A stretch of 64,000 bases of DNA. Origin: a virus. Each line of letters begins with the position of its first letter. Positions within the stretch are counted from its first letter, which is position 1. The stretch is taken from positions 31,016-95,015 of IMG/VR virus record IMGVR_UViG_3300032579_000010, one strand, 5' to 3'. The notes beneath the pieces were generated by a model that saw nothing but the letters and a program-made list of their open reading frames with translations, was not told the origin of the DNA and did no database searches. Below, one piece after another: positions 39,292-60,040 of the stretch. The position numbers and the translations under genes are program-made.

Positions 39292-39648
39292 CTACTTAGC
39301 CTCGTCGGGCTTAACGTCGGACTTAGCACGACGTGGCTTTTCGGCAACAACGGTTGCCTTAGTGTCGGTGTCGGCTGACTTTTCAGCAGTTGCCTTCTTA
39401 GAGGCTGTTGCTGGCTTTGTTGCCGCTTCCTTTTCCGCTTGCTTCTTGGCTTCTTGAGCCTCGTGCTCAGCGGTAAGTGTGGCGATTTCCTTGCCACTCA
39501 AGGGCTTAACCCAGCCCTTTGTTTCAACGTACTGCTGACCCTGCCACGACCAGTTTTGGTTCGAGCAAAGTTCGCCAGCCTTCACCACCGAGCCGTCACT
39601 GTCTGTGAAGTCAATAACGGCTCGGTGGGAAAAGGTGGGCTTAGACAT
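39292..39648 (-). CDS. Small head-associated protein with Lys/Ala-rich tail
   Basis: Coupled to the capsid gene stop. Confidence 0.55.
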   Translation of the reverse strand: MSKPTFSHRAVIDFTDSDGSVVKAGELCSNQNWSWQGQQYVETKGWVKPLSGKEIATLTAEHEAQEAKKQAEKEAATKPATASKKATAEKSADTDTKATVVAEKPRRAKSDVKPDEAK

Positions 39649-41095: not shown

Positions 41096-41989
41096 CTATC
41101 GAGCCTTCTCGCTAAGGTAAGCGGTGTAGAGGTCAGGGTTGCTCTGAGCAACTGACAACAGCGCAGACTCAAACGAAGGTGACGTACCGTTGGCAACAGC
41201 GGCCTTGGCAAGGTTTTCCATCTTCGAGAAAGCGTCGTCGGCGGCAACAGGAGCGTCTGAACCAACTTCGGTGAATACAGCGTTCGTCTCAGCAACAGCG
41301 TTAGCGCTGTCGAGAGCCTTAACTACTTCTGTAGCAAGAGTGCTGTCAGTCTCAGAAAGACGACGGAGAGCAGGTCCCACGATTGAAGGGTCAAGGTTTA
41401 GGTGTGACCACTGTGCTGCTTTGATTACTGCGGCTTCATCGGCACGGGCTTCACGCTCTGCGATGAGTGCTTGCTCTGAAGCGGCGGCCTTGCGGAGCGC
41501 TGCTTCTGAGTTTGCGGTTGCCTCGTCCAGCATCTTGCGGATGGCGGCGGGCATAGCCTTAATAATGTCAGCCTCACTAGCAGCCTCAGGAATAATAACT
41601 ACCTCTGGGGCAGTTACGTCTGAAGTGTTAGACATAGTTTCCTCCTTGGAAACAAAGGTTGTGAATACTTCCTCGGCGGTTGCCGATTCAGTTGCCTCGA
41701 TTTCAGTAGCCTTGTCCACTGCCGTTTCGTCAGAAACTTCTGGGACTTCTTCGGCTTCCTCAACAACCTCAACTTCAGGTGCTGATTCGGCAATGACCAG
41801 TTCCTCAGACTTTTCCAAGTCCTCAACGGGGGCTTCCACTGCTACTTCTTCGGGGCGCAGTTCGTCAAGAACCGCAGTCACATCGGTTGGGTTAGCAGAC
41901 TTCATGACGACCCAGCCTTCAGTGAGGTGAGCAGGGTGGTCTACACCGCTCGTCTCCTGAATGTTGAGGCGCACTAACTTTCGTGCCAT
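41096..41989 (-). CDS. Scaffold protein with N-terminal protease-strand motif
   Basis: Start MARKLV at 41989 (AAGGAG RBS); LNIQETSGVDHPAH...VMKS; acidic and helical; ends NPDLYTAYLSEK. Confidence 0.75.
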   Translation of the reverse strand: MARKLVRLNIQETSGVDHPAHLTEGWVVMKSANPTDVTAVLDELRPEEVAVEAPVEDLEKSEELVIAESAPEVEVVEEAEEVPEVSDETAVDKATEIEATESATAEEVFTTFVSKEETMSNTSDVTAPEVVIIPEAASEADIIKAMPAAIRKMLDEATANSEAALRKAAASEQALIAEREARADEAAVIKAAQWSHLNLDPSIVGPALRRLSETDSTLATEVVKALDSANAVAETNAVFTEVGSDAPVAADDAFSKMENLAKAAVANGTSPSFESALLSVAQSNPDLYTAYLSEKAR

Positions 41990-42046
41990 GCCTTCTCCTT
42001 TACGACTTCTTGCCAATGGATAATCCCATTGGTCTTGACTATCAGA

Positions 42047-44544: not shown

Positions 44545-44623
44545 TCGTTCTTGGGATTTGCTGGACACAACGCCTAGAACTCCTAAATCCCGTTCGCTGG
44601 AAGGCGGCGGGATTTAGTCTTTT
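44545..44623 (+). ncRNA. Candidate ~80 nt antisense small RNA
   Basis: Lies between the plus-strand promoter and a terminator; stem-loop displays an 18-mer complementary to the mRNA at 47677-47694. Confidence 0.5.
44583..44623 (+). terminator. Intrinsic terminator
   Basis: CTAAATCCCG...CGGGATTTAG stem followed by TCTTTT on the plus strand. Confidence 0.65.
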
Positions 44624-45104
44624 ACAGGTGAGCCTTGATTCGTTCCTTTTTGGGCAAGTGGTCGAGGATAGTCCTACCGTCTAGGTGGTCAATCTCGTGT
44701 TGGAAGATACAGGCTTCTATGCCTGTCGCTTCTTTTTCCACCACATTACCTTTTAGGTCAAGCCCTAAAAGGTGGACGGTTTCGTGACGGGTGATGTTAA
44801 ATCCCTTGCCCGGTATGGATAGGCAACCTTCGTGACCGACCTGAGCACCAGACCAGCCAACAATGCGTGGGTTAATAACAGCACGAAGCACTTTGTCGTT
44901 CATTTCATAGACAAAAATGCGCTGGCTGATGCCGACCTGATTAGCCGCTAAGCCAACTCCACCGAGGCGGTACATAACTTCGCCCATACGGGCAACAAGA
45001 GAAACCGTCTCGCCGTTGATTTCACCAATGTCCTTCGTTGGGATAGAAAGGCACGGGTCGGGGATAGTGCGTATGTCAAGCAAAATCGCTGAAGGTGTTG
45101 TCAT
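44622..45104 (-). CDS. def: Peptide deformylase
   Basis: GVGLAANQVG, EGCLSIP and QHEIDHLDG motifs; likely start MTTPS. Confidence 0.95.
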   Translation of the reverse strand: MTTPSAILLDIRTIPDPCLSIPTKDIGEINGETVSLVARMGEVMYRLGGVGLAANQVGISQRIFVYEMNDKVLRAVINPRIVGWSGAQVGHEGCLSIPGKGFNITRHETVHLLGLDLKGNVVEKEATGIEACIFQHEIDHLDGRTILDHLPKKERIKAHL

Positions 45105-45378
45105 AGTCTGAACGTATTTCCGCAAACAACGCTTCGACAAAATCGTTCAAGTCGGGGATTTCACTCTGGTGAGCAAAGAGGCGACCAGCGGCAGTGGCGA
45201 AGGCAAAAGAGAAAAGACTGCGTTCTAACTTCAGTTCGTCAATGGCGTTCTTTTGTTCCTTAGCGCCGATAGTCAGTAAGTCTTGCATTTTCACCATTGA
45301 GTTGAGCGAGGTTTGCGTCAACTCCAACTTCTCTTTCGTTGTAGCGAGTTCTTGCTTCAAATCTGATTTACGAGTCAT
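45076..45378 (-). CDS. Hypothetical coiled-coil protein
   Basis: Coupled ORF. Confidence 0.55.
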   Translation of the reverse strand: MTRKSDLKQELATTKEKLELTQTSLNSMVKMQDLLTIGAKEQKNAIDELKLERSLFSFAFATAAGRLFAHQSEIPDLNDFVEALFAEIRSDYDNTFSDFA

Positions 45379-46992: not shown

Positions 46993-47628
46993 TTATTCTC
47001 CTACACAACCGTCTTGCCACTCAGGGGCGAAACCGTGGTTGTAGTTGTAGAACCAAACTGCCACTGCTGATTGTTGCTGTGGCGTGGCTAAGTTCGCACT
47101 GGTCGTCTCAATACCAACGTGACTTGCGCCAAATGCCCATAGGTAAGGCAAGAACTGGTACAGACCCTGCGCACCTGAGTACTGGTTGGTGTCGTTGGGG
47201 TGATTTCGACTTTCCGCATAGCGAATACAGGCAAACGTGCTCTGAACGGACAACGGCAACGTGTGGGTTGGGTCGTCTGATGTTGGCTCATATGCCGTTG
47301 GGTCATACGTCCACGTCCACCAAAGAGGCTCACCGATTTGGTAAGTGCTCGTGGTGACCGAGTGTGGGCGGATAGTCTCACTAACCACAGGGCGACCCTT
47401 AATAGTCTCAGGCAGGTGCGCCAGCGTGGTCGTGGTTACCGACGAAGCAAACGGCATTGAGTCTGAGTAGGACGTTAGAAGTGCCTTTTGGTTAGCCGTC
47501 AAAACGGTAGTCGTCGTCGTTGGTGATACGACGGAACTCGCTATGGTCGAGGCTGGGGATACGGCGTGGGAAACCAAGCCGACTGTTGTGGCGAGGGCTA
47601 ATGTTGCCCCTCGCACTAGACCCCTCAC
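46993..47628 (-). CDS. Secreted Rpf/lysozyme-like lytic transglycosylase
   Basis: Signal peptide, Thr-rich linker, CIRYAESR...GAQGLYQF...W...ATPQQQSAVA...W..C. Confidence 0.85.
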   Translation of the reverse strand: MRGLVRGATLALATTVGLVSHAVSPASTIASSVVSPTTTTTVLTANQKALLTSYSDSMPFASSVTTTTLAHLPETIKGRPVVSETIRPHSVTTSTYQIGEPLWWTWTYDPTAYEPTSDDPTHTLPLSVQSTFACIRYAESRNHPNDTNQYSGAQGLYQFLPYLWAFGASHVGIETTSANLATPQQQSAVAVWFYNYNHGFAPEWQDGCVGE

Positions 47629-47754: not shown

Positions 47755-50700
47755 TTAGGCTGTTTCGCCTGATGAGGCTTTATTTTTGAGGTTTTCCTTC
47801 CCCATAACCAGCCATAAGAAATCGTCAGGCTCGGAACTGTCCACGTCGTGCCAGTTGCCGTCAGTGTCCATCCACTTGTCACCCTGAATCCACTGCGGAC
47901 CAAACATACCGTCAGCCCAGTAGCCGTCGGTAACGTTCTTTGGTGCTTCGTCTTGAGCCTTACTCATAAACCCTAGTTTAGCAGACTTAGTAACCTTTGT
48001 CCAACCTAGTGCTTCGGCAATGTTGGTAACCAAAGGCGTGTCAGGAACGAGTGGTGATTGGAAGGCGGCGTAGGACTCGGCAACAGTCTCCTGAAGGGTC
48101 GTCGAGCCGTATCTAGTGCTACCCAAAGAGTTAATGACACTCTGGGTAGAGGGAAGTAATGGGGTGTTTCCCCAGCCTTTACTAGATAGATACGAAGGAA
48201 GGTCGGCTCTAAGAATGTTTCCATCAGGCGTTGACATTCCGTAAGGAACATTTCTGCTGACGTAAAGTTTTATAGAAGAGTCTGTGACCTTATTCCAGTC
48301 TGGTGTTGTCACACCTAGTTCTTGACCTGTCTTGTCGAGGGCGGAATAAATCTGGTCAATGTGGTCTCCAGCAGCAAAGAAGTTGGAGTGACCTAGTTCG
48401 TGGATAACCGTGGACGCAATGCTTTGTTCGGGGTTGGCAATGAGGTCAGAAACCGACCATTCCTTTTGTAGGTCGCCTTCGGTCAAGTCCTTTTGGGTGC
48501 CGTCAGGGAAACCCTGCGACATATTGTTGGTAAAGAAATCTCTTACTTCGTCCGAAGCATTTTGCATACCTGCGATTTCACCAGAACGCCAGTAAACATC
48601 GCTAGCGACGGTAGACCATTTGCCCATTTGGATTGTGTTGGGGTTGGCAGGATTGACCCAAGCGCCAGTTGAGCGGTCAGCATCGTTGGCATGGGTGAAG
48701 TCAAGAGTCTTACCTTCACCGTACTTGTCAATAGCGTTCATAGCGGCTGTAGAAAGTCGTTCACCGGGTGCCCAACCTCGTGCACCCTTGGCGAAAATGA
48801 CGGTGTTGGTTCCCTTTGTGAAGTAAATCTTTCCACCAGACTCGCTCTTAGACCAGCCCTTTGGAACGGGTGCCTTCATGCGAGGCAAGGTCTTACGGGC
48901 TAACAGTGTTTTGGCTTCTTTGTAGCCTTCGCTCGTCCCCTTCCACGTTGCGTTGGAGTTTGGTACGCCACCGATTCCACCAGTCCATTGGTTTCCGTGG
49001 AACGAGTGACCAGAAACATCGCCTTTTGCTACGGGTTTTTCAGCATCAGCCTTGAACTGCAAGTCCATTGCTCGGTAGTACAACTCGGAAGCCTTGTCCT
49101 CGTCTCCTGCGAGTCGTGCTTCCTTGCTGGCTTGTCGCAGTTCCTCAGCCTTTTCAGCATTGGACTTCTCTGACTTTTCCTTTTTTGCTACGTCGAGGAC
49201 TGCTTTGATAACGGCAGTAACTAGTTCTACGGAGTTTTTCACCACAGACTTATTGACACCTGCGGAAGCAATAAGGGTATTGGCGTAGTCTTTTGCCTCA
49301 GCGTCAGTACAGGTGGCGATAGAGCCGAACTTGCTGATTAACTCAGGCGTGGCTGAGACAACTTGCCAGTATTTCGTAAGACTAAATGAGTGGGAGTCTG
49401 AGTAGTCCTTTAGTTCCTGAAGGGTTTGTTCGCCGTTTGCGTCAACGAACTTGTCATCACCGATTTGGAGTGCGTAGTGCTGAACAAAAACGGGTGGATA
49501 GTTCTTACCTTCTTCAGGAGTTATGGGGTCGCCAAGGGCGACAGGCTTACCGTTGGGGTAGATGTTCTGTAGAGCCTTCATAACCACGCCACAACCACCG
49601 AACAGTGGGCTGTTGTTGGGATAGCCAAGATACCCCTGCTTTGTCATAATCCTATTGAACGCATTAATGCTCTCAGACGACATAAAGGCGGATTTCACCT
49701 GTTCGCCTGTAAGCAATGCGCCTTCTGCCGAGCCGTTACCGCCTGTCCACTGATTGCCGTGGAACTCATGTCCTGCCACGTCACCCTTTTTCACCTCTTG
49801 GCTATTGAAGTGGGCGACCATTTTTTTTGCCCACGAGTAGCCAGCATCGCCACCCCAAGCGTCCCAAGCGACACGACCCGGCGACGGGTAACCGTTTTCA
49901 CCAGAACTAAAGCCTTCTGCCTTCTTGTCTGGTTGGTGGCGGTCAAAGTACGCCTTCATACGACGCAGCGTGTCCTCTGAGACACTGTGAGCGCTGGCTA
50001 GGTCGCTGGCTCGCTTGCGTCCAACGGCGGTGAATCCGTCTCCTGCCTTGCCGTCCTTTATCCAGTCCAGCGCACGTTGAGCGGCTTGTTGGACACCCTG
50101 CGGTGGTGTGAATGATTCTGAACTCTTAGCAACGTCTGAGACAGATTTCACTACTGAGGCAACCGAGTCAAGCGCACGGAACGCCTCAATCAACCTGTCA
50201 AGATTGTCAATGAGGTTTTGGAACTTGTCGTCCATTCCCAACTGGGCAAAGTGTGGTTCGAGGGTCGCCAGTTTGGGCTTCATAATCAGCAAAGCCTCTA
50301 GCGTCAAACCACGGTTCCAAAGGTATGCAATGAAGTCTGGCTGTGGCACTCGTGGGCGGAAGTTGCAAAGAGCGTGGTCAATACCGACAATGCGGTTTTC
50401 ACCTGTGTAAATCAAGTTCTTGGGTCGGCGGTCAGCGTTGGCTACGAGGTAGTCAAAAAGACGCAGATTGTCTCCCTGAGCCGTTTCTGGGTAGTATTCC
50501 TCGATTCCCAGTTCCTCGCCTGTCTTGCCCTCAATGAAGGGCATAATGACCGTTTTAGCCCCGTCTGAGGTGAATAGGCAGTCACGGATAGGTGCGTTAA
50601 TAACTTCGCCTACACGGGCAGACAGGTACTCCTGAGCGGAAAGTAGCGGAGCAGGATACAACCTGTGGGTTTTATTTCCGACCCAATCCTTCAGTTCCTT

Positions 50701-50835
50701 TTGGATTCCACCACTACCGTCGGCAAATGTGACAAAAGTGAAGCCGTTGTTTTGGTTTCCCTTGAACTTGCCGTCGAGTAGGTTGCGCTCAACAATGTCA
50801 ATGTTGGTGAAGGTGACAAAGTTGGGTTGGAACAT
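47755..50835 (-). CDS. Polyvalent head-associated protein: PI3/4K/HipA-like kinase + phage head domain + papain-like domain + zincin metallopeptidase
   Basis: FDYLVANADRRPKN...GIDHAL; GRVAWDAWGGDAG; GGCG...QHY...FVDANG; VIHELGH...RYG...ETVAESY; two KGDVxGHxFHGNQW tags. Confidence 0.75.
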   Translation of the reverse strand: MFQPNFVTFTNIDIVERNLLDGKFKGNQNNGFTFVTFADGSGGIQKELKDWVGNKTHRLYPAPLLSAQEYLSARVGEVINAPIRDCLFTSDGAKTVIMPFIEGKTGEELGIEEYYPETAQGDNLRLFDYLVANADRRPKNLIYTGENRIVGIDHALCNFRPRVPQPDFIAYLWNRGLTLEALLIMKPKLATLEPHFAQLGMDDKFQNLIDNLDRLIEAFRALDSVASVVKSVSDVAKSSESFTPPQGVQQAAQRALDWIKDGKAGDGFTAVGRKRASDLASAHSVSEDTLRRMKAYFDRHQPDKKAEGFSSGENGYPSPGRVAWDAWGGDAGYSWAKKMVAHFNSQEVKKGDVAGHEFHGNQWTGGNGSAEGALLTGEQVKSAFMSSESINAFNRIMTKQGYLGYPNNSPLFGGCGVVMKALQNIYPNGKPVALGDPITPEEGKNYPPVFVQHYALQIGDDKFVDANGEQTLQELKDYSDSHSFSLTKYWQVVSATPELISKFGSIATCTDAEAKDYANTLIASAGVNKSVVKNSVELVTAVIKAVLDVAKKEKSEKSNAEKAEELRQASKEARLAGDEDKASELYYRAMDLQFKADAEKPVAKGDVSGHSFHGNQWTGGIGGVPNSNATWKGTSEGYKEAKTLLARKTLPRMKAPVPKGWSKSESGGKIYFTKGTNTVIFAKGARGWAPGERLSTAAMNAIDKYGEGKTLDFTHANDADRSTGAWVNPANPNTIQMGKWSTVASDVYWRSGEIAGMQNASDEVRDFFTNNMSQGFPDGTQKDLTEGDLQKEWSVSDLIANPEQSIASTVIHELGHSNFFAAGDHIDQIYSALDKTGQELGVTTPDWNKVTDSSIKLYVSRNVPYGMSTPDGNILRADLPSYLSSKGWGNTPLLPSTQSVINSLGSTRYGSTTLQETVAESYAAFQSPLVPDTPLVTNIAEALGWTKVTKSAKLGFMSKAQDEAPKNVTDGYWADGMFGPQWIQGDKWMDTDGNWHDVDSSEPDDFLWLVMGKENLKNKASSGETA

Positions 50836-50872
50836 AGGGCATCCTCTCTGAAACCCAAGCCTACTTTAGGAT

Positions 50873-50962
50873 TTAAGCCTTTTGGATTTCGCCAGAAGCG
50901 TGTCCAGCAGGTTCTCCTGTTGCATCAATGTGACGTAGTTGGCAGAAGCCCTCTGGGTTGTC
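50873..50962 (-). pseudogene. Orphan duplicate of an internal segment of the upstream gene
   Basis: Reads DNPEGFCQLRHIDATGEPAGHASGEIQKA*, 26/28 aa identical to 51345-51428; has no start codon. Confidence 0.8.
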
Positions 50963-51597
50963 AAAGCGGAACCCCAGCAGCAACCCGTGAGGCGGCTGAA
51001 GCCGTGCTTGCGTTTGCGGCTATGTTGGTTCGGTTTCCCGAACGGGCGAAATCCCCTGCTTGCTTTGAGGCACTATCATGCGCCAACGCTGCTTGGAAAT
51101 GAAGTTGGCTTACCAATCCGTTTGTTTTATCCGCCAAATCAAAGTGCGCCCTTGCAAGTTCAGCGTGTTTACTGGCTATGTCTTGCAAGTTGTGTACTTT
51201 ATTGGGGTCTGCGTCAGGCGTATTTTGGACTTTTGACGCAAAGTTAGCAAGGTCTTTTGCTTTGGAAGCAACGTCTTTGGCTTGTTCGTAATCTTCTTGT
51301 TTGGCGTACTGGTTTCCCCGAAATGGGTGACCTGAAAAGTCGCCCTTAGCGATTTCACCACTTGCCTTGCCTGCAGGCTCACCCGTAGCGTCAATGTGGC
51401 GGAGTTGGCAGAACCCTTCTGGGTTGTCTATGTGCTTTCCAGCAATGGCAACACAAGCGTCAAAGTCACCGGGGCTACCCCAGTCAATCTGACCGTCAGC
51501 GCCGTTGTTGTACCAGTCAATCAAGCCTTGGGCATTTCCCGCCTTGTGGATTTCCACCTCACGGGCGTACTTGACCCAAGACAGAATGTCAGACATG
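50961..51597 (-). CDS. Head-associated cargo protein (WGSPGDF..C domain + tag + His/Ala helical domain)
   Basis: Likely start MSDILSW; IDWGSPGDFDACV...PEGFCQLRH; IAKGDFSGHPFRGNQY. Confidence 0.7.
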
Positions 51598-51606
51598 ACG
51601 AACCGA

Positions 51607-52818
51607 CTAGCCGTTAGCAACCATTGGGCTTTGTAGTGCGTCAGCCTGAGCGTTTAGGCGACCAGCGTAAGCACGTTGAACTGCGGCAAGTCCACGTTGT
51701 TCTGAACGTGCATCATCATCGCCAGTTTCCTTTGCGTGGAGTCCAGCAATACCTTCGTGGCTTCCTGCGGCTTGCATACGCAACTTCGCAGCAGTACGGA
51801 GTTCTTCCGCAGCCTTTTCAGTACGACCTACAGCGAGGTGTCCCTGAGCAAGTGCTTCGTGAGCATCTGCGGCAGACTTCGAGGCTTCAGCAGACTTGGC
51901 GTAACGAGACATTGTTTGCTTCCAACCTTCACGAATACCTAGGCGTGGGAAGTTACGAGCACCACCAGTCCATTGGTTGCCGTTGAATGAGTGTCCGGGT
52001 TGAGCACCTGAACCAGCACCGCCCTTGGCGATGTAGTCCTGATAAGCCTCTGACTTTTGGAAGTCCTTAGTAAGAAGTTCGTCTGTGTCAAATGGGTTGT
52101 TTTCAGCACTCTTGCTCAAAGCACCAATAAATACTGCGAGTGGGATAAATCCAGTTCCACATCCGTCACAACCTTCGCCCATGCAAGCAGGGCAGGTTAC
52201 GTCTGGGTTTTCTGGGTAGTCCGATGAGTCATCGTCGTCTGAACTGTCGTCAGGTTGACCGCTAGCGTCAAGCATTACAGCAGGGCCGTCAGAAAAAGAC
52301 TTGGTGAGCGAGAAGTCAGGAACCATAACACCATTTTGGTTCATAATCAACTTAGGAGCAACCTCAACTACGTCATCTTCCTTTTCGGTTTCTTGGTCTT
52401 CAGGCTGGTCTGGACCGTCCTGAACCATTTGACCGTAGCGGTTAGGGATTTCACCCTTAGCCACAGCACGGATACCCTCAAGAGCAGACTTAGCAAGGTC
52501 GAGTTGCTCGTTAGCCTCAGTCGAAGCCTTGTCAGCGTCACGGAAACCAGCGAGAGCGTTGTTGTAAGCCTTGCGCAGTTCCTCACGGTTCCACGACGAC
52601 TTGGCTACAGAATCGAAGTAAGCGATTTCAGTAGCCTTGAGGGTGGCGGTTGCCTTCTCAAGACGGAAGTTGGCGTTATCCACTGCGGACAAAGCCACTA
52701 CCTCAGCCTGTGCGGCCTTAAGGATTTGCTCGCCAGCAACACGCTGGGCGTTCTTCTCGTCAATGCCCTTTTGTACAAACGCAAGGGTGCTGGGAGTTGT
52801 GGTCGTGGTTTTAATCAT
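51607..52818 (-). CDS. Head-associated cargo protein (coiled coil, CxxC Zn site, tag, His/Ala domain)
   Basis: Many hydrophobic-x-K-[SAG] sites; CPACMGEGCDGC; IAKGGAGSGAQPGHSFNGNQW. Confidence 0.7.
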   Translation of the reverse strand: MIKTTTTTPSTLAFVQKGIDEKNAQRVAGEQILKAAQAEVVALSAVDNANFRLEKATATLKATEIAYFDSVAKSSWNREELRKAYNNALAGFRDADKASTEANEQLDLAKSALEGIRAVAKGEIPNRYGQMVQDGPDQPEDQETEKEDDVVEVAPKLIMNQNGVMVPDFSLTKSFSDGPAVMLDASGQPDDSSDDDDSSDYPENPDVTCPACMGEGCDGCGTGFIPLAVFIGALSKSAENNPFDTDELLTKDFQKSEAYQDYIAKGGAGSGAQPGHSFNGNQWTGGARNFPRLGIREGWKQTMSRYAKSAEASKSAADAHEALAQGHLAVGRTEKAAEELRTAAKLRMQAAGSHEGIAGLHAKETGDDDARSEQRGLAAVQRAYAGRLNAQADALQSPMVANG

Positions 52819-52897
52819 AGGGATTTTGCCTTTCGCTCTATGGTGAAAATGCTACACCGTGTTTCGTAAATCCTTGTTCCTAAAGGTTTTTTATTGC

Positions 52898-53362
52898 TTA
52901 AAACTTTGCGTGAAGTGGGTGACTTTCATCAAGCCCATTGTCGTTGCGAGCACTCACACCGTTAGGTACAAATAGTGGGTGGCTTGGGTCAAGACTGTTC
53001 ATAGACTTTTCCACCTCGTCAGACTCAACCTCAACCTCAGGCTCAACCTCAGGCTCAACCTCGACTTCGGCAGACTTCTTAATCCACTGCTCAGGAATCA
53101 TGTCCTCGGCACCGAGAGCCTTGGCTTGCTCGATAATGTGAGCGTGAACAGCGTCTTGGTCTTTGGCACGACCAGCCGACTGAATAGCGTTGGCGAGGTC
53201 TTCCTTGTTAGCAATCGGGAAAGAACCGTCAGGCATAGCCTTGCCCTTTTCAGCAAGTGCTTGGCGCTCGTCTTGCGAAACTTCACGCTTCGAGACAACC
53301 TTGTGACCAAGTGACTTGGCTACCCACTCTGCGATTTCTGCGTCTGTGATTTGTTCTGACAT
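52898..53362 (-). CDS. Head-associated protein with PDGSFPI domain
   Basis: DAEIAEW leader; ERQALAEKGKAMPDGSFPIANKEDLANAIQSAGRA...HII..AKALG..IPEQW. Confidence 0.7.
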   Translation of the reverse strand: MSEQITDAEIAEWVAKSLGHKVVSKREVSQDERQALAEKGKAMPDGSFPIANKEDLANAIQSAGRAKDQDAVHAHIIEQAKALGAEDMIPEQWIKKSAEVEVEPEVEPEVEVESDEVEKSMNSLDPSHPLFVPNGVSARNDNGLDESHPLHAKF

Positions 53363-53380
53363 TTCAGTACGTTCTTTCTA

Positions 53381-54061
53381 TTAGGCGGTTGCTGGGAGGC
53401 GGTTAGCGTTACCTGCGCTCTGAACACCAGCGGTCAGGCTTTGTACGGTGTTAGAGGCGGTCTGCGCTGCGTCCTGAGCGATTTGTGCTCGCATACCAGC
53501 CATCGAAGCGCCAGCAGGGTCAGCCTGTCCGTCAATACGACCAGCGTCATTCGTCGCCTTAGAAGCGATTTCAGCAAGGTCGCCAGCGTGGTGGGCTGAG
53601 GCGTAGAGAGCCTTTGCCTGTTGGTGACCAGTAGTGCCCGTGTCTTGCTTACGAGCGGCCCAAGCGGCGTGGCGAGCGGCTTCGTTGAAGTGACGCATCG
53701 CATCGCCGTGTTGCCCAGCACGAAGGCTTGCCTGTGCTGCGTCGGCTTCTTGCTTAGCAAGGGCGAGGTGGGTGTTGCCTGAAAGGTATTCGTCACCACG
53801 GGCATTGTGAGCGGTGGCTTGGAATGAGGCAGAGGTGTGACCGTTTCCACGGAAAGGGTGACCATCGTGTTCACCTGAACCCGGTCCGCCCTTTTCTACG
53901 TTCTGTACGCAGTCGGGGCAATCTACGTTGCCGTCCTTAATGGTGCCAGTACCACCACAAGTCTCACAGTCGGGGTTAGGCGACTTCGCCTTTTCCACCT
54001 CACGGTAGGCAGGGATGTTCATCTCTTCGATGACTTCGTTAGTTTCAACGGCTTCAGACAT
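53381..54061 (-). CDS. Head-associated cargo protein (DnaJ-type Zn finger, tag, His/Ala domain)
   Basis: CETCGGTG...CPDC; VEKGGPGSGEHDGHPFRGNGH. Confidence 0.7.
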   Translation of the reverse strand: MSEAVETNEVIEEMNIPAYREVEKAKSPNPDCETCGGTGTIKDGNVDCPDCVQNVEKGGPGSGEHDGHPFRGNGHTSASFQATAHNARGDEYLSGNTHLALAKQEADAAQASLRAGQHGDAMRHFNEAARHAAWAARKQDTGTTGHQQAKALYASAHHAGDLAEIASKATNDAGRIDGQADPAGASMAGMRAQIAQDAAQTASNTVQSLTAGVQSAGNANRLPATA

Positions 54062-54150
54062 AGGGGTTCCTTTCGGACGGATTAAGTAGTGTCTACTGCC
54101 TTAAATGCTACCCCTAGTTTTAGAAATCTTGGTTTAGATACCCGATTTCA

Positions 54151-54609
54151 CTACTGCGCTAGGTCTGGGCGCTGGCTTAAGATGTAGCGAACCGACGAGT
54201 GGAAGTTGTTGTCCGTCAGGGCGTTAATGTCGGCTGGGGTCGCCTGATTCACAAGCCACTTCGGGATTGCGTCTGCTGAACGCTCGTCGTTGCTCATTTT
54301 GGGAGTTCCCTTAATGGCTTCTGCCATGTCGGGGTGACGGTCTTCCGCTTCCATAATCTTGGCGGCGGTGTCAGTCATTGGGACTTGGTTCCAGTCAGAG
54401 GCGTAATCGCTGGCTTTTACCGAGGAAAGTGCTTCGGGCGTATTGTTCTTGTCGCCCCAGTTTCCACCACCAGACGTGTACTGGTTACCGTGGAAAGCGT
54501 GTCCCGGCACGTCTCCTTTGGCTACGAGGTCTGGCTGAGTAGCCTCGCCCATAGAGGCTTGTAGCCAAGCCGTGATTTCAGCATCGCTTGTGTCTTCCCA
54601 GTTGGTCAT
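54151..54609 (-). CDS. Tagged cargo protein
   Basis: DAEITAW leader; VAKGDVPGHAFHGNQY. Confidence 0.7.
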   Translation of the reverse strand: MTNWEDTSDAEITAWLQASMGEATQPDLVAKGDVPGHAFHGNQYTSGGGNWGDKNNTPEALSSVKASDYASDWNQVPMTDTAAKIMEAEDRHPDMAEAIKGTPKMSNDERSADAIPKWLVNQATPADINALTDNNFHSSVRYILSQRPDLAQ

Positions 54610-54611
54610 TG

Positions 54612-55046
54612 TTAGCCCCTTGCGGCTCGGCTCATAGCATCGGCTGTTTTTGATGCGTCAGAGGCGTTAATAAGAGAATCTTGTAGGTTGCTGTTTGCTT
54701 CGTTGTACATATCACGCATTTCTGGCGTTGCGTCTGTTGCGCCAGCCATTCCAGCAGCGTCTTCGACGTTTTCCTTGGCTTCCTTAGCGTCTTGGTAAGC
54801 CTTTACAGCGTTGATGTGAGCCGTGACTGCCTTGTCGTTCAAAAGAGCAGTCTTTGTGTCGCCTAGGGCATCTGCCTTGTCACGAGCGATTGAGTGCGCC
54901 GTTGCTTGTCCGAGGTGATAAGAAATAGCCTCGTTAATGGCACCCCCAACGCCAGCGCCCCATTGGTTGCCATGAAAAGCGTGTCCAGCAACGTCGCCCT
55001 TGGCAAAACGTACCCAGTTAATGATTTCAGCGTTGAGTTCAGTCAT
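54612..55046 (-). CDS. Tagged cargo protein
   Basis: NAEIINW leader; FAKGDVAGHAFHGNQW. Confidence 0.7.
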   Translation of the reverse strand: MTELNAEIINWVRFAKGDVAGHAFHGNQWGAGVGGAINEAISYHLGQATAHSIARDKADALGDTKTALLNDKAVTAHINAVKAYQDAKEAKENVEDAAGMAGATDATPEMRDMYNEANSNLQDSLINASDASKTADAMSRAARG

Positions 55047-55049
55047 TAT

Positions 55050-55532
55050 TTATCCAACCATTGAGTTAAAAGAAGCGCTTAGAGCGTCGTTGCTTGCTTG
55101 GTGAGCGTCACTAGGAAGGTCGCTAAACGTAGGCAAATAGGCTTTGCCTTCACCGTTGTTTTCACCAAGAGCCTTTATGTACGCTTGGTGAGCAACGTCT
55201 GAGGCGTGGAGATTTGCTTCTGCTTCCTTAAGGTCGCCACGGTCGGCGTGAATACCCGCTAAGGCTGAGTGAAGAAGCGATAGGCGGTTGAGGTCATTAA
55301 CCTTTGTGCCTGTAGTGAGCATACGATTACGCAATGCAGAAATCTTTTGCGAAGCGTCACGCACCGCTAGGTTGCTGTGTTCACGGTCTGCCCCAGCGTG
55401 TGTCCCGCCAGACATTTGACCTGCCGACCACTGGTTTCCGTGGAAAGCGTGTCCGGGTACGTCACCCTTTGCTATTTCACCAACCTTCGCCCAAGTAGGT
55501 GCGAGGTTGTCTGTGGAAAAAGGATTATTCAT
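55050..55532 (-). CDS. Tagged cargo protein
   Basis: Start 55532 after AAAGGA RBS (in-frame upstream ATG at 55580); NPFSTDNLAPTW leader; IAKGDVPGHAFHGNQW. Confidence 0.7.
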   Translation of the reverse strand: MNNPFSTDNLAPTWAKVGEIAKGDVPGHAFHGNQWSAGQMSGGTHAGADREHSNLAVRDASQKISALRNRMLTTGTKVNDLNRLSLLHSALAGIHADRGDLKEAEANLHASDVAHQAYIKALGENNGEGKAYLPTFSDLPSDAHQASNDALSASFNSMVG

Positions 55533-55579
55533 TGTTATTCCTTTAGGCGAGTTGATTATTTCAGCATCTATGTCAGTCA

Positions 55580-56077
55580 TTAGCGATACTCATCGAATGG
55601 TGCTAGCAAAGAAGTTTTAAGATTGGCATTTACAGTTGCGTTAAATGCTTTTGAGGTAGCGTCTGACGCTGACCTTGCCTCTGGTTGGTTTGCCGAGTAT
55701 GGCTCTGCATCGTATTGCGCATTTTTAGCACCTAAGTGCGCCTCTGCTGCGTCAAGGTGCGCCTGATATGCGTCACCTGCTCTACCCCATCTTTGTGGTG
55801 GGATTTGACCACTTTGAACGGCATCTAGAATGTCTCTTGCAAGTTGAACGTGACCACTAGCAATAGTCCCGTGTTGGAAAGCCATTGCACTTCCGTTTTC
55901 ACCACGGTTTGAACGATTAACAACAGACCTAGAAGCAGTAGTAAGTGCCTTTGACTGCCCTACGGCTGTTGTTGCTTGCCATTGGTTGCCGTGAAAGGCG
56001 TGACCTACGACATCCCCTTTAAGGATTTCACTAGCCTTAGACCAGTTTGGAACGAGGTCGTTTGTATTGAATGACAT
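55580..56077 (-). CDS. Tagged cargo protein
   Basis: FNTNDLVPNW leader; ILKGDVVGHAFHGNQW. Confidence 0.7.
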   Translation of the reverse strand: MSFNTNDLVPNWSKASEILKGDVVGHAFHGNQWQATTAVGQSKALTTASRSVVNRSNRGENGSAMAFQHGTIASGHVQLARDILDAVQSGQIPPQRWGRAGDAYQAHLDAAEAHLGAKNAQYDAEPYSANQPEARSASDATSKAFNATVNANLKTSLLAPFDEYR

Positions 56078-56088
56078 AGTTGCTCTCC

Positions 56089-57609
56089 TTAGCGGTTTGG
56101 GAAGGTTGCTGGGTTGTCGTATTCGGTAGGAAGGTCAACTTCTACGCCAGCGCCGGTGCCACCGATTGAGTAGCCACGGATTTCGCCCTTCTTGACAAGT
56201 TCCCAAGCCCAAGGTTCCCATTGCACACCAAGGAATACGGTGCCAGCAGGGAACTGTTGCTTTGTGATTTCACCAGTGTCGGCTTTCATCATTGGAACTT
56301 CGACTTCGTGGGGCCACGTCAGTGCCTCAACCCACTTACCAGCCACAATGTTTACGTTGTGCTGAAGGCGAATGTCACGGTCACCGTTTTCTACATAACC
56401 CCAAAGAGCCTTTTGTAGTTCTTCTGGGTCTGTCCATTCGCCATGTGCGTCTGCACGGTTTGGAACGTACCAAGGACCAAGGGTGTAGCGAAGTTCTGCG
56501 TTTTTCTTGATTTGGTTAGGGATTTCAGTAATAACTTCTTTGCTCTTTTGCATCAAGTTTGCGTCTTGTACAACTTGTGGGTTCACAACGTCGTCAGACA
56601 GAACAGTCATGTTCTCAGGAACAAACTTAGGCTTGCGACGGCGTGAGCCGACCATTGTGCCAACGGCATCAACGTGAACTTCACTTACGCCCGGACCTTC
56701 TTTTTCCACCACAGTCTCGGCGGTGCGAGTCTTGGCTTCCTTGTACATTTCGTTGGCTTCGCCAGCGGCACGGATAAGGACGGGGACAATGTTGAACTTG
56801 CACCAGCCGTTAGGTGATACCTGCGTGGCAACCCAGTCGCAAGTGCCATTCATGTAGGCAATGCAACCAGAGCAGTTTCCAGCATCGCCAAAGGGCGAGT
56901 TGTCAGTGTATGAAGCGTCAGTCGTAGGGAAACGACCAATGTTGTCAACTACTGCGTCAATGCTTTCAGCAAGTTCGACTTGCCAAGGGTCAAGACCGTC
57001 CTTCCAGTGGTCGCCAAGGTCGCTGTCAAGAGCGGCGCTTGAGGAACTGGAACTGCTGGACGAGGACGAACTGCTGGACGAGGACGAACTGCTGGACGAG
57101 GACGAGGAACTGTCGTCGCTACTGTCCTTGTCATCAACGATTTCCACCACGGCAGGCGTACTCGACGTACTTGAACTGTCGCTTGACGACGAAGACGAGG
57201 AACTGCTTGAGTCGGAACTTGAGGAACTGCTCGAACTTTCGTCCTCACGGCTTTGCTGAACCGCCTGAAGGATAGCGGCGACGGTAGCAGGGTCTAGTTG
57301 TACCTGAACGGTGCCCATAGTTGAGTCGTCGCTGTCGTCAGAACTGTCGTCAGAACTGTCGTCCTGTGGCTCAATGGGAGCGGCGTTGAACGTGAATGGG
57401 AATCCAATCGCCTTGTTTTTTTCACCAACGGGGGCGAGAATAAGTGAGGATTCGCCTGCCTTCTCAACGGCAATCAGGTCGGCAGAAGCGTAGCCCTCGG
57501 TCAAAAGGTCGGCGGCTGACTTACGGAGTTCGTTGTCTAGGTGCTCGCTTACAATGATTTCAGTAAGTGATACGTCCTTGACAACATCGAGGATATTTAG
57601 TTCGTCCAT
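56089..57609 (-). CDS. Prohead maturation protease, XkdF-like, with long Ser/Asp-rich N-terminal region
   Basis: RYTLGPWYVP..DAHGEW...IRLQH...GTVFLGV..W..VKKGEIRGYSIGG; follows portal; CSGC...C...GWC motif. Confidence 0.85.
   Translation of the reverse strand: MDELNILDVVKDVSLTEIIVSEHLDNELRKSAADLLTEGYASADLIAVEKAGESSLILAPVGEKNKAIGFPFTFNAAPIEPQDDSSDDSSDDSDDSTMGTVQVQLDPATVAAILQAVQQSREDESSSSSSSSDSSSSSSSSSSDSSSTSSTPAVVEIVDDKDSSDDSSSSSSSSSSSSSSSSSSSSSSSSSAALDSDLGDHWKDGLDPWQVELAESIDAVVDNIGRFPTTDASYTDNSPFGDAGNCSGCIAYMNGTCDWVATQVSPNGWCKFNIVPVLIRAAGEANEMYKEAKTRTAETVVEKEGPGVSEVHVDAVGTMVGSRRRKPKFVPENMTVLSDDVVNPQVVQDANLMQKSKEVITEIPNQIKKNAELRYTLGPWYVPNRADAHGEWTDPEELQKALWGYVENGDRDIRLQHNVNIVAGKWVEALTWPHEVEVPMMKADTGEITKQQFPAGTVFLGVQWEPWAWELVKKGEIRGYSIGGTGAGVEVDLPTEYDNPATFPNR
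57040..57112. repeat. 18-bp tandem repeat encoding poly-Ser
   Basis: (gaactgctggacgaggac) x3. Confidence 0.85.
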
Positions 57610-57674: not shown

Positions 57675-57788
57675 TTAGCGGAAGTGGCGGCGTGTTGGGG
57701 CAACGCCCTTAAACGGCACCGAACGAGCCTTTATGGTCGTCTGCTTTTTTTTTCCAGCAGAGTTAGTCGGCTTTATTCGGATTTTCAC
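57675..57788 (-). CDS. 37 aa very basic microprotein (below cutoff)
   Basis: GTGA overlap with portal stop; MKIRIKPTNSAGKKKQTTIKARSVPFKGVAPTRRHFR*. Confidence 0.45.
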   Translation of the reverse strand: MKIRIKPTNSAGKKKQTTIKARSVPFKGVAPTRRHFR

Positions 57789-59443
57789 GAAGTTGAGCCT
57801 TGGTTGTTAATAAGTGGGCTATTTGTAACTGGTCCGTTCTGACCTGTGGTGTTTCCCGTAGCGCCCTTGCCTGACGGCGGTGTTTGTCCAGTTTGACCGG
57901 GGTAGCCCTGACTCGAAATGTCAGCCATGATGCCACTGCCACCGCTTTGGTCGTTCTTTCCACCTTGGGGGTTTTGTACGCCACTAGGAGTTGTGTTGGG
58001 CTGTGCCGAAGCACCAGTTACCGCCGAGTTTGCGGCAATAAAGTTCTTTTTGTTGTCGTGGGTTTGCTCGGTCTGACCCGGCTGAGTCATGTTTTCACCA
58101 TAACGAGAGTTGTCGGCAACACCGTTGGCTTCTGGTCTGAAGGCTGGCAATCCAGCCAGTTCACGCAGGAAGTCCTCAAGGTTGTTGTCAGGCGTAAGAA
58201 GTTGCGACTGAGAAAGGTTGGTGAGGAACGTACCAAGTTCCACCAAGTCCACCGCAGAAACCTGACCATATGCCAGTTGGGGCATACGGGAAGTGTCAAA
58301 GCCGTTCAGCGACATTAGGCGTGGCAATGCGTGGCTGTTGAATACCTCACAAATCAGGCGAATCCAAGATTCCACTGCGGCGATAAACAAGTCCACCTTG
58401 GAAGCGCCCAAAGCGAAGGAACCGACGGATTCGTGACCCAACATAATGAAGTCAGCCAGAACCGTCATGGCAATCTGCTGGTTGTAGCGAGTAATGATTT
58501 GGTCAGTGTTGAACTGACGAGCACCGCCAGAGTTCATCAACTTAAAGTCCACTAACTGCTTGCCGTTCTCGTCAAACATCATTGGCAAGATAATGCCTTC
58601 GGCTTCGTTGCGCTTTACGCCTCGTACAATGCGTTCCATAGCGCCCAATGACGCTTTTTCACTAGGTGTGGCAGAGGCACTCATCCACTCGGCAGGAACG
58701 TAACCAACGGGCAGTCCAGCCAAGTCACGCTCAACGCCGACTGCCTCAAACTCTTCGATACGGCGCTTGTAGTACCACGACTTAAACGAGTTACGTAGGA
58801 CTGAGCGACCTTCTGGGTTTCCACGAGCGGTGGTGGTGCGGAACAGCAAAGCCTTTTCGATTGGGATAACGTTCAGGCGACCCGTCGTTGGGTCACGTTG
58901 AATCATTGCCTTGATTCCACCACTCTCGTCAAACTGCCACTGCCACAGACTGTCCTGTGCTCGCATAGCAATCTTGCGCCAGCCGACCTTGTTGTCGCTG
59001 AACTTGGAGCGCATTGACGGGTCTTTTTGTTCCGGTCCCTTGCGTTGCTTGTAGACAATCTCAAAGAAAGACCAGCCGTAAGGTAGAAAACTGAGGATAG
59101 CAATCATCAGTTCGTGCCACGAGTGGCTCATGTCGTCCATACATTCTTGGACAAAGGCGGCGACGGCACGGTCATTGTCCGTTGGCGTTTCACCAGTCTG
59201 GTCGTCGTAAGGGTCTACTCGCCAGTCCACCTGAAGGATTACACGTTCGATAGCAAAGAGGATTGACCCAATAATCGGGTCGTTTTCACTCATGTCACGG
59301 TAAGCGGTTAGTGCTTGTCGTCCTCGAAGTTGAGGCAGGATGTCGTCAATGACGAATCCACCCGTGCGCCAAAGACCCGTAGCACCCAGTTCTGAGAAGT
59401 TATCTACAGGTTGTAGAGGTATTTGTTCCTCGTTATCTGGCAT
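57785..59443 (-). CDS. Portal protein (Mu gp29/DUF935-like)
   Basis: ELGATG, YRDMSENDP, YGWSFFEIVY, GNPEGRSVLR, VERDLAGLP, GSFALG motifs. Confidence 0.9.
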   Translation of the reverse strand: MPDNEEQIPLQPVDNFSELGATGLWRTGGFVIDDILPQLRGRQALTAYRDMSENDPIIGSILFAIERVILQVDWRVDPYDDQTGETPTDNDRAVAAFVQECMDDMSHSWHELMIAILSFLPYGWSFFEIVYKQRKGPEQKDPSMRSKFSDNKVGWRKIAMRAQDSLWQWQFDESGGIKAMIQRDPTTGRLNVIPIEKALLFRTTTARGNPEGRSVLRNSFKSWYYKRRIEEFEAVGVERDLAGLPVGYVPAEWMSASATPSEKASLGAMERIVRGVKRNEAEGIILPMMFDENGKQLVDFKLMNSGGARQFNTDQIITRYNQQIAMTVLADFIMLGHESVGSFALGASKVDLFIAAVESWIRLICEVFNSHALPRLMSLNGFDTSRMPQLAYGQVSAVDLVELGTFLTNLSQSQLLTPDNNLEDFLRELAGLPAFRPEANGVADNSRYGENMTQPGQTEQTHDNKKNFIAANSAVTGASAQPNTTPSGVQNPQGGKNDQSGGSGIMADISSQGYPGQTGQTPPSGKGATGNTTGQNGPVTNSPLINNQGSTS

Positions 59444-59816
59444 CTCGACTCCGTGCGTCTATTGCTTCGCTTGCTTCTATAAGGCTACTACCCTTTTTCA
59501 GCATCGAACTAATCCGTCGTCGCTGACTGGGGCTATGTCCACCCCAGACACCCCACTGTTCGTCCAGTCCAAAGCGCAAGCACTCGTATCGAACGGCGCA
59601 ATCAAGGCACAACTTACGGGCTGGGGCTAAGTGGTTTCCACCATGAGCCGTTGTCTCTGGGTAGAACAAGTCAACGTTCTCTCCTTCGGGGGTTCTACAC
59701 AAAGCCATTTCCGTCCACCAAGGTCGCTGAAGCGCCAAGAACAAGTCAATGGGCATGAAGTCGAACTGGTGAGTTGCTTCCTTAAACTCGCCAAACTCGT
59801 TTTGGTTTTCCACCAT
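59433..59816 (-). CDS. whiB: WhiB-family transcription factor
   Basis: W...ALC...LFYP...ARKLCLDCAVRYECL...GVWGG.SP.QR; likely start MVENQ. Confidence 0.92.
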   Translation of the reverse strand: MVENQNEFGEFKEATHQFDFMPIDLFLALQRPWWTEMALCRTPEGENVDLFYPETTAHGGNHLAPARKLCLDCAVRYECLRFGLDEQWGVWGGHSPSQRRRISSMLKKGSSLIEASEAIDARSRDAR

Positions 59817-60040
59817 TACCTGTCTCCAAGGCAGATAGAGCAAAAGGCGCAATAACGCAGTGCTTGTGCCTCACTAAATCCAGCCTCGACCAGCGCCTCG
59901 AAGGTTTCACGCATTTCTATGAAATACATCACCATGTAGTCGTAGTCCTCTGGTTCAAAAAGTTCGTCGTGAGGCTTAGTGATGTCACGGTCAAAATCGT
60001 CTAAGCCACGCTCGAAGTCGTCGGAGAAAGGGGAGTCCAC
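59816..60040 (-). CDS. Hypothetical acidic protein
   Basis: FEALVEAGFSEAQAL motif; coupled to whiB. Confidence 0.6.
   Translation of the reverse strand: MDSPFSDDFERGLDDFDRDITKPHDELFEPEDYDYMVMYFIEMRETFEALVEAGFSEAQALRYCAFCSICLGDR

Follow-up and report, generated by a model that had tools for sequence, protein, structure and literature searches.

The ways in which phages select proteins for packing into the head and injection into the host are understood for few models, among them T4, P1 and the phiKZ group. In T4, the internal proteins IPI-III and Alt carry a capsid targeting sequence and are processed by the prohead protease gp21. Proteases of the gp21 type (S77) cut after Leu/Ile-x-Glu, and the T4 leaders, which lie before the cut, are poorly conserved. 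The Dar system of P1 (DarA, DarB, DdrB, Hdf and Ulx) is made up of internal head proteins, and DarA is annotated as an internal head protein that is proteolytically processed in head maturation (NC_005856). MuF polymorphic toxins of temperate phages have a head-associated N-terminal part, to which enzyme or toxin modules that vary from protein to protein are joined at the C-terminal side (Jamet et al. 2017, PMC5576092); a search of that paper for the terms motif, linker, cleavage or junction returned nothing. Polyvalent proteins were described by Iyer, Burroughs, Anand, de Souza and Aravind (2017, PMC5512222), and a text search of their paper found no mention of the tag peptide described below, nor of any conserved peptide that heads modules or joins them.

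We analysed a 64,000-nucleotide stretch (the window) of IMG/VR record IMGVR_UViG_3300032579_000010, a 95-kb virus record from an uncultured phage of actinobacteria of about 120 kb. The genes run from the portal to an XkdF-type head protease and then directly into an array (47755-56077, minus strand) in which the short peptide GDVxGHxFHGNQW, here called the tag, is repeated ahead of modules. The features are as follows.

57785-59443, minus strand: portal protein, 552 aa; 50% identity by tblastn to annotated Arthrobacter phage portals.
56089-57609, minus strand: head maturation protease of the XkdF type, 506 aa, with a long acidic, Ser/Asp-rich N-terminal part; PF14550 at aa 368-487 (E 7.5e-13) and PHROG head maturation protease families.
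55580-56077, minus strand: tagged gene g165; 19-aa leader NDLVPNWSKASEILK, tag at 55979-56017 (core match 55979-56005), payload; no Pfam or PHROG match.
55050-55580, minus strand: tagged gene g176; leader NNPFSTDNL, which recurs within g403 just ahead of the g403 tag; tag at 55428-55466 (core match 55428-55454), payload.
54612-55046, minus strand: tagged gene g144; 15-aa leader TELNAEIINWVRFAK, tag at 54960-54998 (core match 54960-54986), helical payload.
54151-54609, minus strand: tagged gene g152; 30-aa leader, tag at 54478-54516 (core match 54478-54504), payload with homologues in relatives.
53381-54061, minus strand: tagged gene g226; N-terminal CxxCxGxG-type Cys motif, tag at 53837-53890 in a long variant, VEK-GGPGSGEHD-GHPFRGNGH (core match 53837-53863), helical payload.
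52898-53362, minus strand: untagged gene g154, 154 aa; leader of the same class, TDAEIAEWVAKS; in relatives its domain forms a segment of a tagged protein of larger size.
51607-52818, minus strand: tagged gene g403; first module of 269 aa with a coiled coil, an acidic tract and a Cys motif; tag of the long variant at 51970-52023 (core match 51970-51996), helical payload.
50961-51620, minus strand: tagged gene g219; a first module that matches phrog_6439 (aa 25-89), then the tag at 51306-51344 (core match 51306-51332), helical payload.
47755-50835, minus strand: polyvalent protein g1026 with two tags; kinase-like module (aa 1-235) and head-associated domain phrog_2859 (aa 241-359), tag 1 at 49747-49785 (core match 49747-49773), module B (aa 364-600), tag 2 at 48985-49023 (core match 48985-49011), gluzincin-like module (aa 620-1026; HELGH...ETVAE).
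41096-42016, minus strand: acidic, helix-rich protein ahead of the capsid genes, a possible scaffold; phrog_13547.
39648-40655, minus strand: major head protein (phrog_1005, E 1.1e-95), with no obvious propeptide in its sequence.

The initial annotation had counted nine copies of the tag in eight open reading frames behind the prohead protease. A six-frame scan for GH.F.GN[QG][WYH] bore this out, with exactly nine matches, all on the minus strand, and the upstream gene was correctly called as an XkdF-type protease, with PF14550 in 56089-57609. A degenerate DNA pattern matched eight times in the whole 95-kb record, always in the array and on a single strand, and a reversed (mirror-image) control pattern matched nowhere in that record. 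Because these eight DNA copies differ at synonymous positions, conservation is at the protein level, as had been claimed. The full pattern is [VILF]-x-K-G-(D-V-x or G-x-G-S-G-x-x-x)-G-H-x-F-x-G-N-Q/G-[WYH]. The hydrophobic-x-Lys site that it noted is present before the Gly in all nine copies (in order, ILK, IAK, FAK, VAK, VEK, IAK, IAK, VKK and VAK), and in four tagged genes leaders of 15-37 aa end in it.

Other parts of the earlier description needed correction. The eight tagged frames are not strictly adjacent; g154 interrupts the series. A single form of the tag holds for seven copies, but two have the longer variant K-GG[PA]GSG-xxx-GH, one of them ending in GNGH. The payloads were called unrelated, and pairwise comparison within the array found no significant similarity; this is true at the sequence level only, since the small ones are for the most part rich in Ala and resemble helices. 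Pfam had no matches in the tagged proteins of the array, and PDB sequence, ESM Atlas and Foldseek searches with the payloads gave nothing significant, the sole lead being weak M1/M60 zincin rows for the HELGH module of g1026. Because most lack enzyme-like features, the small payloads could be structural core proteins rather than effectors.

How widespread is the tag? A profile matched 2,509 protein clusters, and a single protein can hold as many as nine copies. The tag's carriers have MuF, portal, XkdF, DarA-like, ADP-ribosyltransferase (ART), ParB, kinase and zincin modules, as is typical of polyvalent proteins associated with the head, and also include Mu-type portal extensions and DarA_N/DarA_C proteins, and the neighbouring genes encode terminase, portal and capsid proteins. 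These neighbours, together with the portal, MuF, XkdF and DarA-like fusions, support the view that the tag belongs to head-gene modules. In g1026 and its tag-bearing relatives the mix comprises kinase, zincin, ART, ParB, GNAT, topoisomerase, 2H and NUDIX modules. The only cultured carrier that we found was Xanthomonas phage Rb1, with one copy; this was the one true match in a tblastn search of 50,697 cultured phage records with 24-29-aa tag queries, which is too insensitive a method. Actinomycetia phage DSL-LC01 (129 kb) and Arthrobacter phage Laroye have head genes or a domain in common with the window and no tag. Full-text and motif-string searches of the searchable literature found no description of the tag. 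These data suggest that it is a widespread, apparently undescribed label on proteins probably carried in phage heads.

As in T4, the window encodes small proteins and enzymes with the head genes, and these have a short N-terminal leader and a candidate protease site of the hydrophobic-x-charged type; we presume that the proteins are loaded into the procapsid, trimmed and injected. Unlike T4, the protease is of the XkdF type (PF14550) rather than S77, the sites are hydrophobic-x-Lys rather than Leu/Ile-x-Glu, and the presumed cut falls ahead of the conserved element, which hardly varies among thousands of proteins of very different phages. The polyvalent proteins of Iyer et al. (2017, PMC5512222) resemble g1026, which has four modules in one polypeptide and, like its relatives, is encoded beside portal, MuF and protease genes. 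However, most modules of the window are separate small genes, the seven smaller genes holding one or two modules each. Tag carriers of proteobacterial prophages and Rb1 have DarA_N/DarA_C and adjoin DarB-like SNF2 giants, as in the P1 Dar system, but the Dar proteins of P1 itself have no tag copy, and Pfam finds DarA domains only in other tag carriers, with neither these nor DarB-type methylase-helicase domains in the window array. Similarly, several tag-bearing proteins contain MuF, whereas PF04233 was not detected in the nine array proteins of the window. We regard the tag system as a real variation on the theme of T4-type internal proteins and polyvalent proteins.

The position of the tag within proteins is that of a header. 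Among 119 relatives, the first copy lies a median of 28 aa from the protein start (often 13-30 residues), and in 95% the last copy is followed by at least 90 residues (5th percentile 96 aa). These distances support the earlier view that the tag heads the module downstream of it. Homologues of the g1026 modules stand in a different order in the proteins P0015 and P0012, with alignments breaking at the tags, and in another relative (L096) the zincin module stands alone behind a leader and tag. In a complete relative whose portal is 83% identical, the array is wholly rearranged, and split and fused gene forms interchange among relatives. These comparisons show that modules reshuffle between relatives with breakpoints at tags. 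According to AlphaFold, the tag alone is unstructured (134-sequence alignment), and ahead of the zincin module it has a pLDDT below 50 compared to 80-95 for the core. The header is predicted to be an unstructured linear motif.

We propose the following reading, to which we give a probability of roughly 55% as a whole. The proteins of the eight genes after the head protease would probably be loaded into the procapsid. Each cargo module has the conserved header G-D-[VLFY]-x-G-H-x-F-[HR]-G-N-Q-[WYH]-T with a Gly-rich spacer, and in this phage the hydrophobic-x-Lys before each header would be the cutting site of the XkdF-type protease. Cutting before Gly-Asp would remove short leaders or separate first modules and divide the 1026-aa polyprotein into three pieces, so that ten modules would begin with an identical free Gly-Asp header. 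That header would probably be read by a partner other than the protease, common to the carrier phages, and this partner could act in loading, retention, or exit via portal and tail. Roles in packaging, ejection or effector delivery are inferences.

We examined the proposed cut site in 280 distinct tag copies from 120 IMG/VR loci. The conserved block begins sharply at the Gly (position -4 is G in 266/280 and -3 is D in 239/280). Position -5 is K in 187/280, and otherwise mostly L, S, A or F, while -7 is V, I or L in 190/280. The residue ahead of the Gly is uniform inside one phage and varies among phages, the classes being K with V/I/L two positions earlier, L/A directly after R/K, E-F, and V/L-x-E; individual copies agree with the majority of their own lineage or protein in 88% of cases. 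This uniformity could also reflect recent duplication within a phage. Six frames in other phages (in L045, L080 with three, L093 and L102) open with M-G-D-x-x-G-H-x-F-R-G-N-Q-[WY]; four of the six have a stop codon 1-4 codons upstream, and the stretches ahead of the ATGs are purine-rich. Because Met preceding Gly is normally removed, these frames would yield the same Gly-Asp front end without a protease. Together, these observations suggest a cut immediately before Gly-Asp. We also weighed a likeness to eukaryotic-virus 2A peptides (...LK-GDV... against GDVExNPGP) and rejected it, since the tag lacks the NPGP core and such a peptide would make no sense only 15 aa after a start codon.

The XkdF-type protease was found only in phages with Lys before the tag. 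PF14550 was above the cut-off in 14 of 24 Lys-class records (window included) and in none of the 14 records that belong to other classes. When the comparison is limited to records of 90% completeness or more, it was present in four of the Lys class and absent from three of the Leu class; the ten Lys-class records in which it was not above the cut-off include one that is 87% complete. However, 10 of the 14 positive records have portals 68-83% identical to that of the window, and the link amounts to about three independent lineages. Because this is largely one clade, the association could reflect shared ancestry. The initial annotation's claim of an XkdF cut after Lys gains from the comparison as regards a cut before Gly-Asp, but not as a general property of the tag, since in about 37% of 715 copies the preceding residue is L, A, F, S, E or yet another. 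In the Leu-, Phe- and Glu-class phages tested, no S78, S77 or ClpP match exceeded the cut-off, and in one genome (G008) a weak S78-like match adjoins the array. The S77 search shows little, since it was silent in every control genome. The literature that we found on XkdF and PF14550 holds no data on cutting specificity; the cross-phage comparison predicts cutting after Lys for this uncharacterised protease family.

To our knowledge, head proteases require far less than an invariant block of 13 residues on the primed side, so the head protease does not explain the conservation of the tag. The lack of an obvious propeptide in the major head protein of this phage also weighs against our reading. 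Phages with at least four families of portal, with or without XkdF, share a core of extreme conservation; because the header is shared by phages with different portals and proteases, its reader is probably neither of these. When untagged neighbours were screened for a candidate reader family, only SNF2, portal, ParB, terminase and capsid families turned up, none of them universal. The tag could instead be a removable targeting peptide in the style of the T4 capsid targeting sequence, cut off C-terminally or on both sides and absent from mature cargo. Frames starting M-G-D...GNQW do resemble an N-terminal targeting sequence, the tag and its Gly-rich spacer are disordered as propeptides often are, and repeated tags in polyproteins could be relics of the fusion of once-separate genes. 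However, conservation fades into the spacer with no phage-specific conserved site downstream, the phage-specific residues sit upstream of the tag, and each module of a polyprotein keeps its own signal where one would suffice. We consider this explanation unlikely.

Conservation across portal families with or without XkdF would equally fit a tag that is never cut but serves as an interdomain motif that docks onto a common hub, be it the capsid interior, the portal, DNA or a protein of the host, with polyproteins staying whole, and full-length transfer of polyvalent proteins has been noted (Iyer et al. 2017, PMC5512222). This is rather improbable, as it accounts neither for the abrupt onset of conservation at G and the residue ahead of it, which is specific to each phage, nor for the M-G-D starts and the interchange of split and fused genes. 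Processing by a cargo peptidase, either the HELGH gluzincin-like module within g1026 or SprT/M48-like modules in other carriers, seems very doubtful, whether it would take place ahead of injection or later, in both cases without the head protease. Such self-processing was proposed by Iyer et al. (2017, PMC5512222), tag-bearing proteins often contain zincin modules (SprT/M48/Zincin_1 in P0028 and the g1026 module), and a metallopeptidase gene adjoins the tagged gene in Rb1; but homologues of the zincin module occur in only 6/88 lineages (fetched flanks), AlphaFold places the adjoining tag outside the zincin with no docking, and the Lys-XkdF link is left unexplained.

A chemistry intrinsic to the tag, whether it cleaves itself at Asn, binds a metal or forms an isopeptide link via Asn/Gln, is the least credible reading, for although D, H, N and Q are invariant in this short peptide and conservation over very different phages fits an intrinsic constraint, no fold for a catalytic site is predicted, Arg takes the place of the second His in about 40% of copies (141 H, 115 R), which also makes the His-based metal site suggested earlier unlikely as stated, and we know of no self-cleaving module that matches the tag.

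Returning to the protease-exposed header, a bolder extension, which we offer tentatively, is that it might be a near-universal address peptide of tailed-phage head cargo, exposed by any protease and read by a conserved feature of the head or exit channel that would hold, order or thread cargo into the host. If true, it would be a portable code by which any protein could be loaded into capsids and delivered. A 13-residue header common to at least 2,500 protein clusters could provide a simple sequence handle for head cargo in metagenomes, much of it probably anti-defence enzymes. The header also marks module boundaries inside giant polyvalent proteins and makes the existence of a common loading or exit signal directly testable.

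Lastly, the scaffold-like protein (phrog_13547) has GWVVMKS at aa 33-39 and seven more hydrophobic-x-K-[AS] sites, a pattern suggestive of a tie to the tag system.

The window comes from an IMG/VR virus record of 95 kb with 74% completeness, and the genes around the tagged array all lie on the minus strand. In gene order they are:

59433-59852 (-), WhiB-like regulator
57785-59443 (-), portal, about 50% identical to Arthrobacter phage portals
56089-57609 (-), 506-aa protein with an XkdF-type head protease as its C-terminal part (PF14550, E 7.5e-13)
47755-56077 (-), tagged array, after the portal and protease genes
beyond the array (-), in order: Rpf-like transglycosylase, DNA methyltransferase, peptide deformylase, exonuclease
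then (-): acidic scaffold-like protein, small head protein
39648-40655 (-), major head protein (phrog_1005, E 1.1e-95)
last (-): three huge collagen-repeat fibre genes

The presence of WhiB and an Rpf-like lysin suggests that this phage infects actinobacteria. Portals 68-83% identical to that of the window occur in ten other tag-bearing IMG/VR records, one of which is complete, at 121 kb, and has terminal repeats. The collagen-repeat genes (13453-37215 (-); 3776, 1682 and 1390 aa) occupy about 20 kb of the phage in total, with PF01391 at E values down to 1e-142 and tail-fibre PHROG matches. The Rpf-like transglycosylase (46993-47628 (-)), which directly follows the array and has a signal-peptide-like start, could be a virion-associated lysin. 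The deformylase-like ORF (44622-45140 (-)), between the array and the capsid genes, has the motifs GxGxAAxQ, EGCLS and HExDH, read by eye.

A six-frame scan of the window with GH.F.GN[QG][WYH] returned exactly nine matches, all within eight ORFs of the array. Across the whole 95-kb record, a degenerate DNA pattern gave eight matches, all in the array and on a single strand, and the reversed control pattern gave none. Every copy in the window is preceded by hydrophobic-x-Lys-Gly; seven have the form K-GD[VF]x-GHxF[HR]GNQ[WY] and two the longer form K-GG[PA]GSGxxx-GH. At the DNA level the copies vary in synonymous positions, and pairwise comparison found no significant similarity between any two array payloads. 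These data bear out the initial annotation on the nine copies in eight genes behind the prohead protease (PF14550), on the hydrophobic-x-Lys before each tag and on codon divergence indicating conservation at the protein level. DnaJ-like CxxCxGxG Cys motifs (CETCGGTG...CPDC; CPACMGEGCDGCGTG) stand shortly before both long-variant tags, in 53381-54061 and 51607-52818 (-).

Two types of leader precede the Lys: NPF-x-TD-x-L-x-P-x-W-x-K-x-x-EI-x-K in g165, g176 and, internally, g403, and T-D/E-AEI-x-x-W-V/L in g144, g152 and g154. Both are seen again in other records. The ORF at 52898-53362 inside the array (g154) has a matching leader (TDAEIAEWVAKS) and no tag; it has lost its tag. The scaffold-like protein carries GWVVMKS near its start, which is weakly suggestive of a leader common to it and the tagged genes.

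An IUPAC scan of IMG/VR found the tag at no fewer than 120 loci, against roughly a dozen expected by our estimate, with at least 345 copies among the loci listed, often two to seven per protein. When a profile of 134 tag sequences was searched against 1.84 billion cluster representatives, 2,509 proteins matched at E <= 0.001, of which 516 reached E <= 1e-10, and a single protein had as many as nine copies. A stricter pattern occurred at only 59 places in 596 Gb of prokaryote genomes, about half of them chance-like, and the tag is therefore strongly virus-enriched. True copies in bacterial genomes lie either in extensions at the C-terminus of Mu-type portals (Akkermansia, a Bifidobacteriaceae MAG) or in DarA_N or DarA_C proteins adjoining SNF2 giants; the Dar proteins of phage P1 itself have no tag. 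The sole cultured carrier found was Xanthomonas phage Rb1 (PQ569993), where the tag sits near aa 739 of a 1221-aa protein annotated 'internal head protein'. Precomputed Pfam domains of carriers include MuF, portal, XkdF protease, ADP-ribosyltransferases, ParB, PI3/PI4-kinase-like, type IB topoisomerase, 2H phosphoesterase, NUDIX, GNAT, zeta toxin and SprT/M48, and tagged genes neighbour terminase, capsid proteins, SNF2 helicases, ParB and portals of at least four families. The tags thus do not lie mostly outside head modules, a distribution that would have been at odds with the cargo-loading system first proposed. A literature search found no description of the motif, and text searches of the two most relevant papers (PMC5512222, PMC5576092) returned no mention of it.

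Among 280 distinct copies from the listed IMG/VR loci (at least 120), conservation begins sharply at Gly(-4)-Asp(-3) and continues to [WYH]-Thr, after which it gives way gradually to a Gly-rich spacer. On the upstream side, -5 (K, 187/280) and -7 (V/I/L, 190/280) are the only conserved positions. AlphaFold gave the tag alone (134-sequence alignment) no secondary structure at pLDDT 68, and placed tag and spacer below pLDDT 50 before a zincin module whose core reached 80-95 (pTM 0.65). Being without structure in both models, the tag is predicted to be a linear motif. Across 119 relatives, the median distance from the protein start to the first copy is 28 aa (5th percentile 14), and that from the last copy to the C-terminus is 96 aa at the 5th percentile; the tag is therefore the front end of the module after it, in keeping with its earlier placement in front of a payload domain.

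Modules are shuffled at the tags. The 1026-aa array protein g1026 consists of a kinase-like module with a phrog_2859 domain, a tag, module B, a second tag and a gluzincin-like module (HELGH...ETVAE). In two other tag-bearing proteins, P0015 and P0012, homologues of these modules are arranged differently and combined with different partners, including MuF, and the alignments of both proteins with g1026 begin and end at tags. The zincin module stands alone behind leader and tag in one virus record (L096) and lies inside five further polyproteins. The array is wholly rearranged in the complete relative G001 (portal 83% and protease 59% identical to the window's): parts of g403 and g154 lie within one protein, the phrog_2859 domain is fused to the first g219 module, and no pieces are better conserved than the tags. 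Split genes and their fused forms are interchangeable. The phrog_2859 domain of g1026 (aa 241-359; TPPxGV..A..AL.W....G.GFT.VG..RA..L......VS..T..RM..YF.RH) is shared with cyanophage S-CBS1, Roseobacter phages, haloarchaeal tailed viruses and others, where the genes that contain it are annotated as portal, protease or capsid; it may be a head-anchoring domain that lacks a Pfam model. About 25 aa from its start, the first module of g1026, which is untagged, contains G-K-F-K-G-N-Q-N (aa 23-31), retained in P0015 and P0012 as F-[EK]-GNQN; this may be the remnant of a tag that became part of the kinase-like module, or a chance match.

The residue before the Gly is 88% uniform within a phage or protein, which could come partly from local duplication, and varies from phage to phage: K with V/I/L two positions earlier, L or A preceded by R/K, Glu-Phe, or V/L-x-Glu (record L129), which shares the form of T4-type sites. 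PF14550 scored above cut-off in 14 of 24 Lys-class records and in none of 14 records of other classes (Fisher P about 1e-4 by our own estimate; P = 6e-4 on earlier counts of 13/22 and 0/13). Among records at least 90% complete, it is present in four Lys-class and absent from three Leu-class records. Ten of the 14 positives come from the clade of the window's phage, which leaves about three independent lineages behind the link. The sequence M-G-D-x-x-G-H-x-F-R-G-N-Q-[WY] opens six ORFs, spread over four IMG/VR records, with a stop codon 1-4 codons upstream in four of the six and purine-rich stretches before the ATGs. Met preceding Gly is normally removed, so these proteins would begin Gly-Asp without any protease. 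The phage-specific preceding residue, the M-G-D starts, the PF14550-Lys link and the interchangeable split and fused genes together point to a putative cut at the bond directly before Gly-Asp. The initial annotation's cut at this junction is thus backed comparatively; its Lys is not general, other phages having L/A, Phe or Glu.

We favor, at a probability of roughly 0.55, a reading in which the array genes would encode head-cargo modules, the junction before Gly-Asp would be the head protease's site (after Lys in the window's phage, cut by its XkdF protease), and the header would be retained on the modules and then read by some common partner. The M-G-D proteins show that the tag does more than mark a cutting site, and its constancy across different proteases and portals shows that its conservation is not due to the protease. 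That the tag is a removable, T4-like targeting peptide is unlikely. A docking motif on uncut proteins is quite unlikely; the comparative signs of a cut weigh against it. Processing by the cargo zincins, themselves found behind tags, is improbable. Least credible is an intrinsic chemistry of the tag; a two-His metal site is disfavored because Arg replaces the second His in 115 of the 280 distinct copies.

Ahead of its XkdF domain, the protease protein (56089-57609 (-)) has, at aa 82-190, a very long Ser/Asp tract in which Ser runs exceed 25 residues, and a Cys motif (CSGCIAYMNGTCDW...WCKF). Immediately in front of that domain, VVEK-EGPG resembles the long-variant junction K-GGPGSG. The families phrog_14859 and phrog_1530, labelled 'RNA ligase' and 'DNA methyltransferase', match this protein via their C-terminal ~125 residues. 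It therefore seems that several enzyme fusions have the XkdF domain as a C-terminal module, and annotation may be misled by such labels. The 'RNA ligase' gp18 of phage Laroye comes directly after the Laroye protease.
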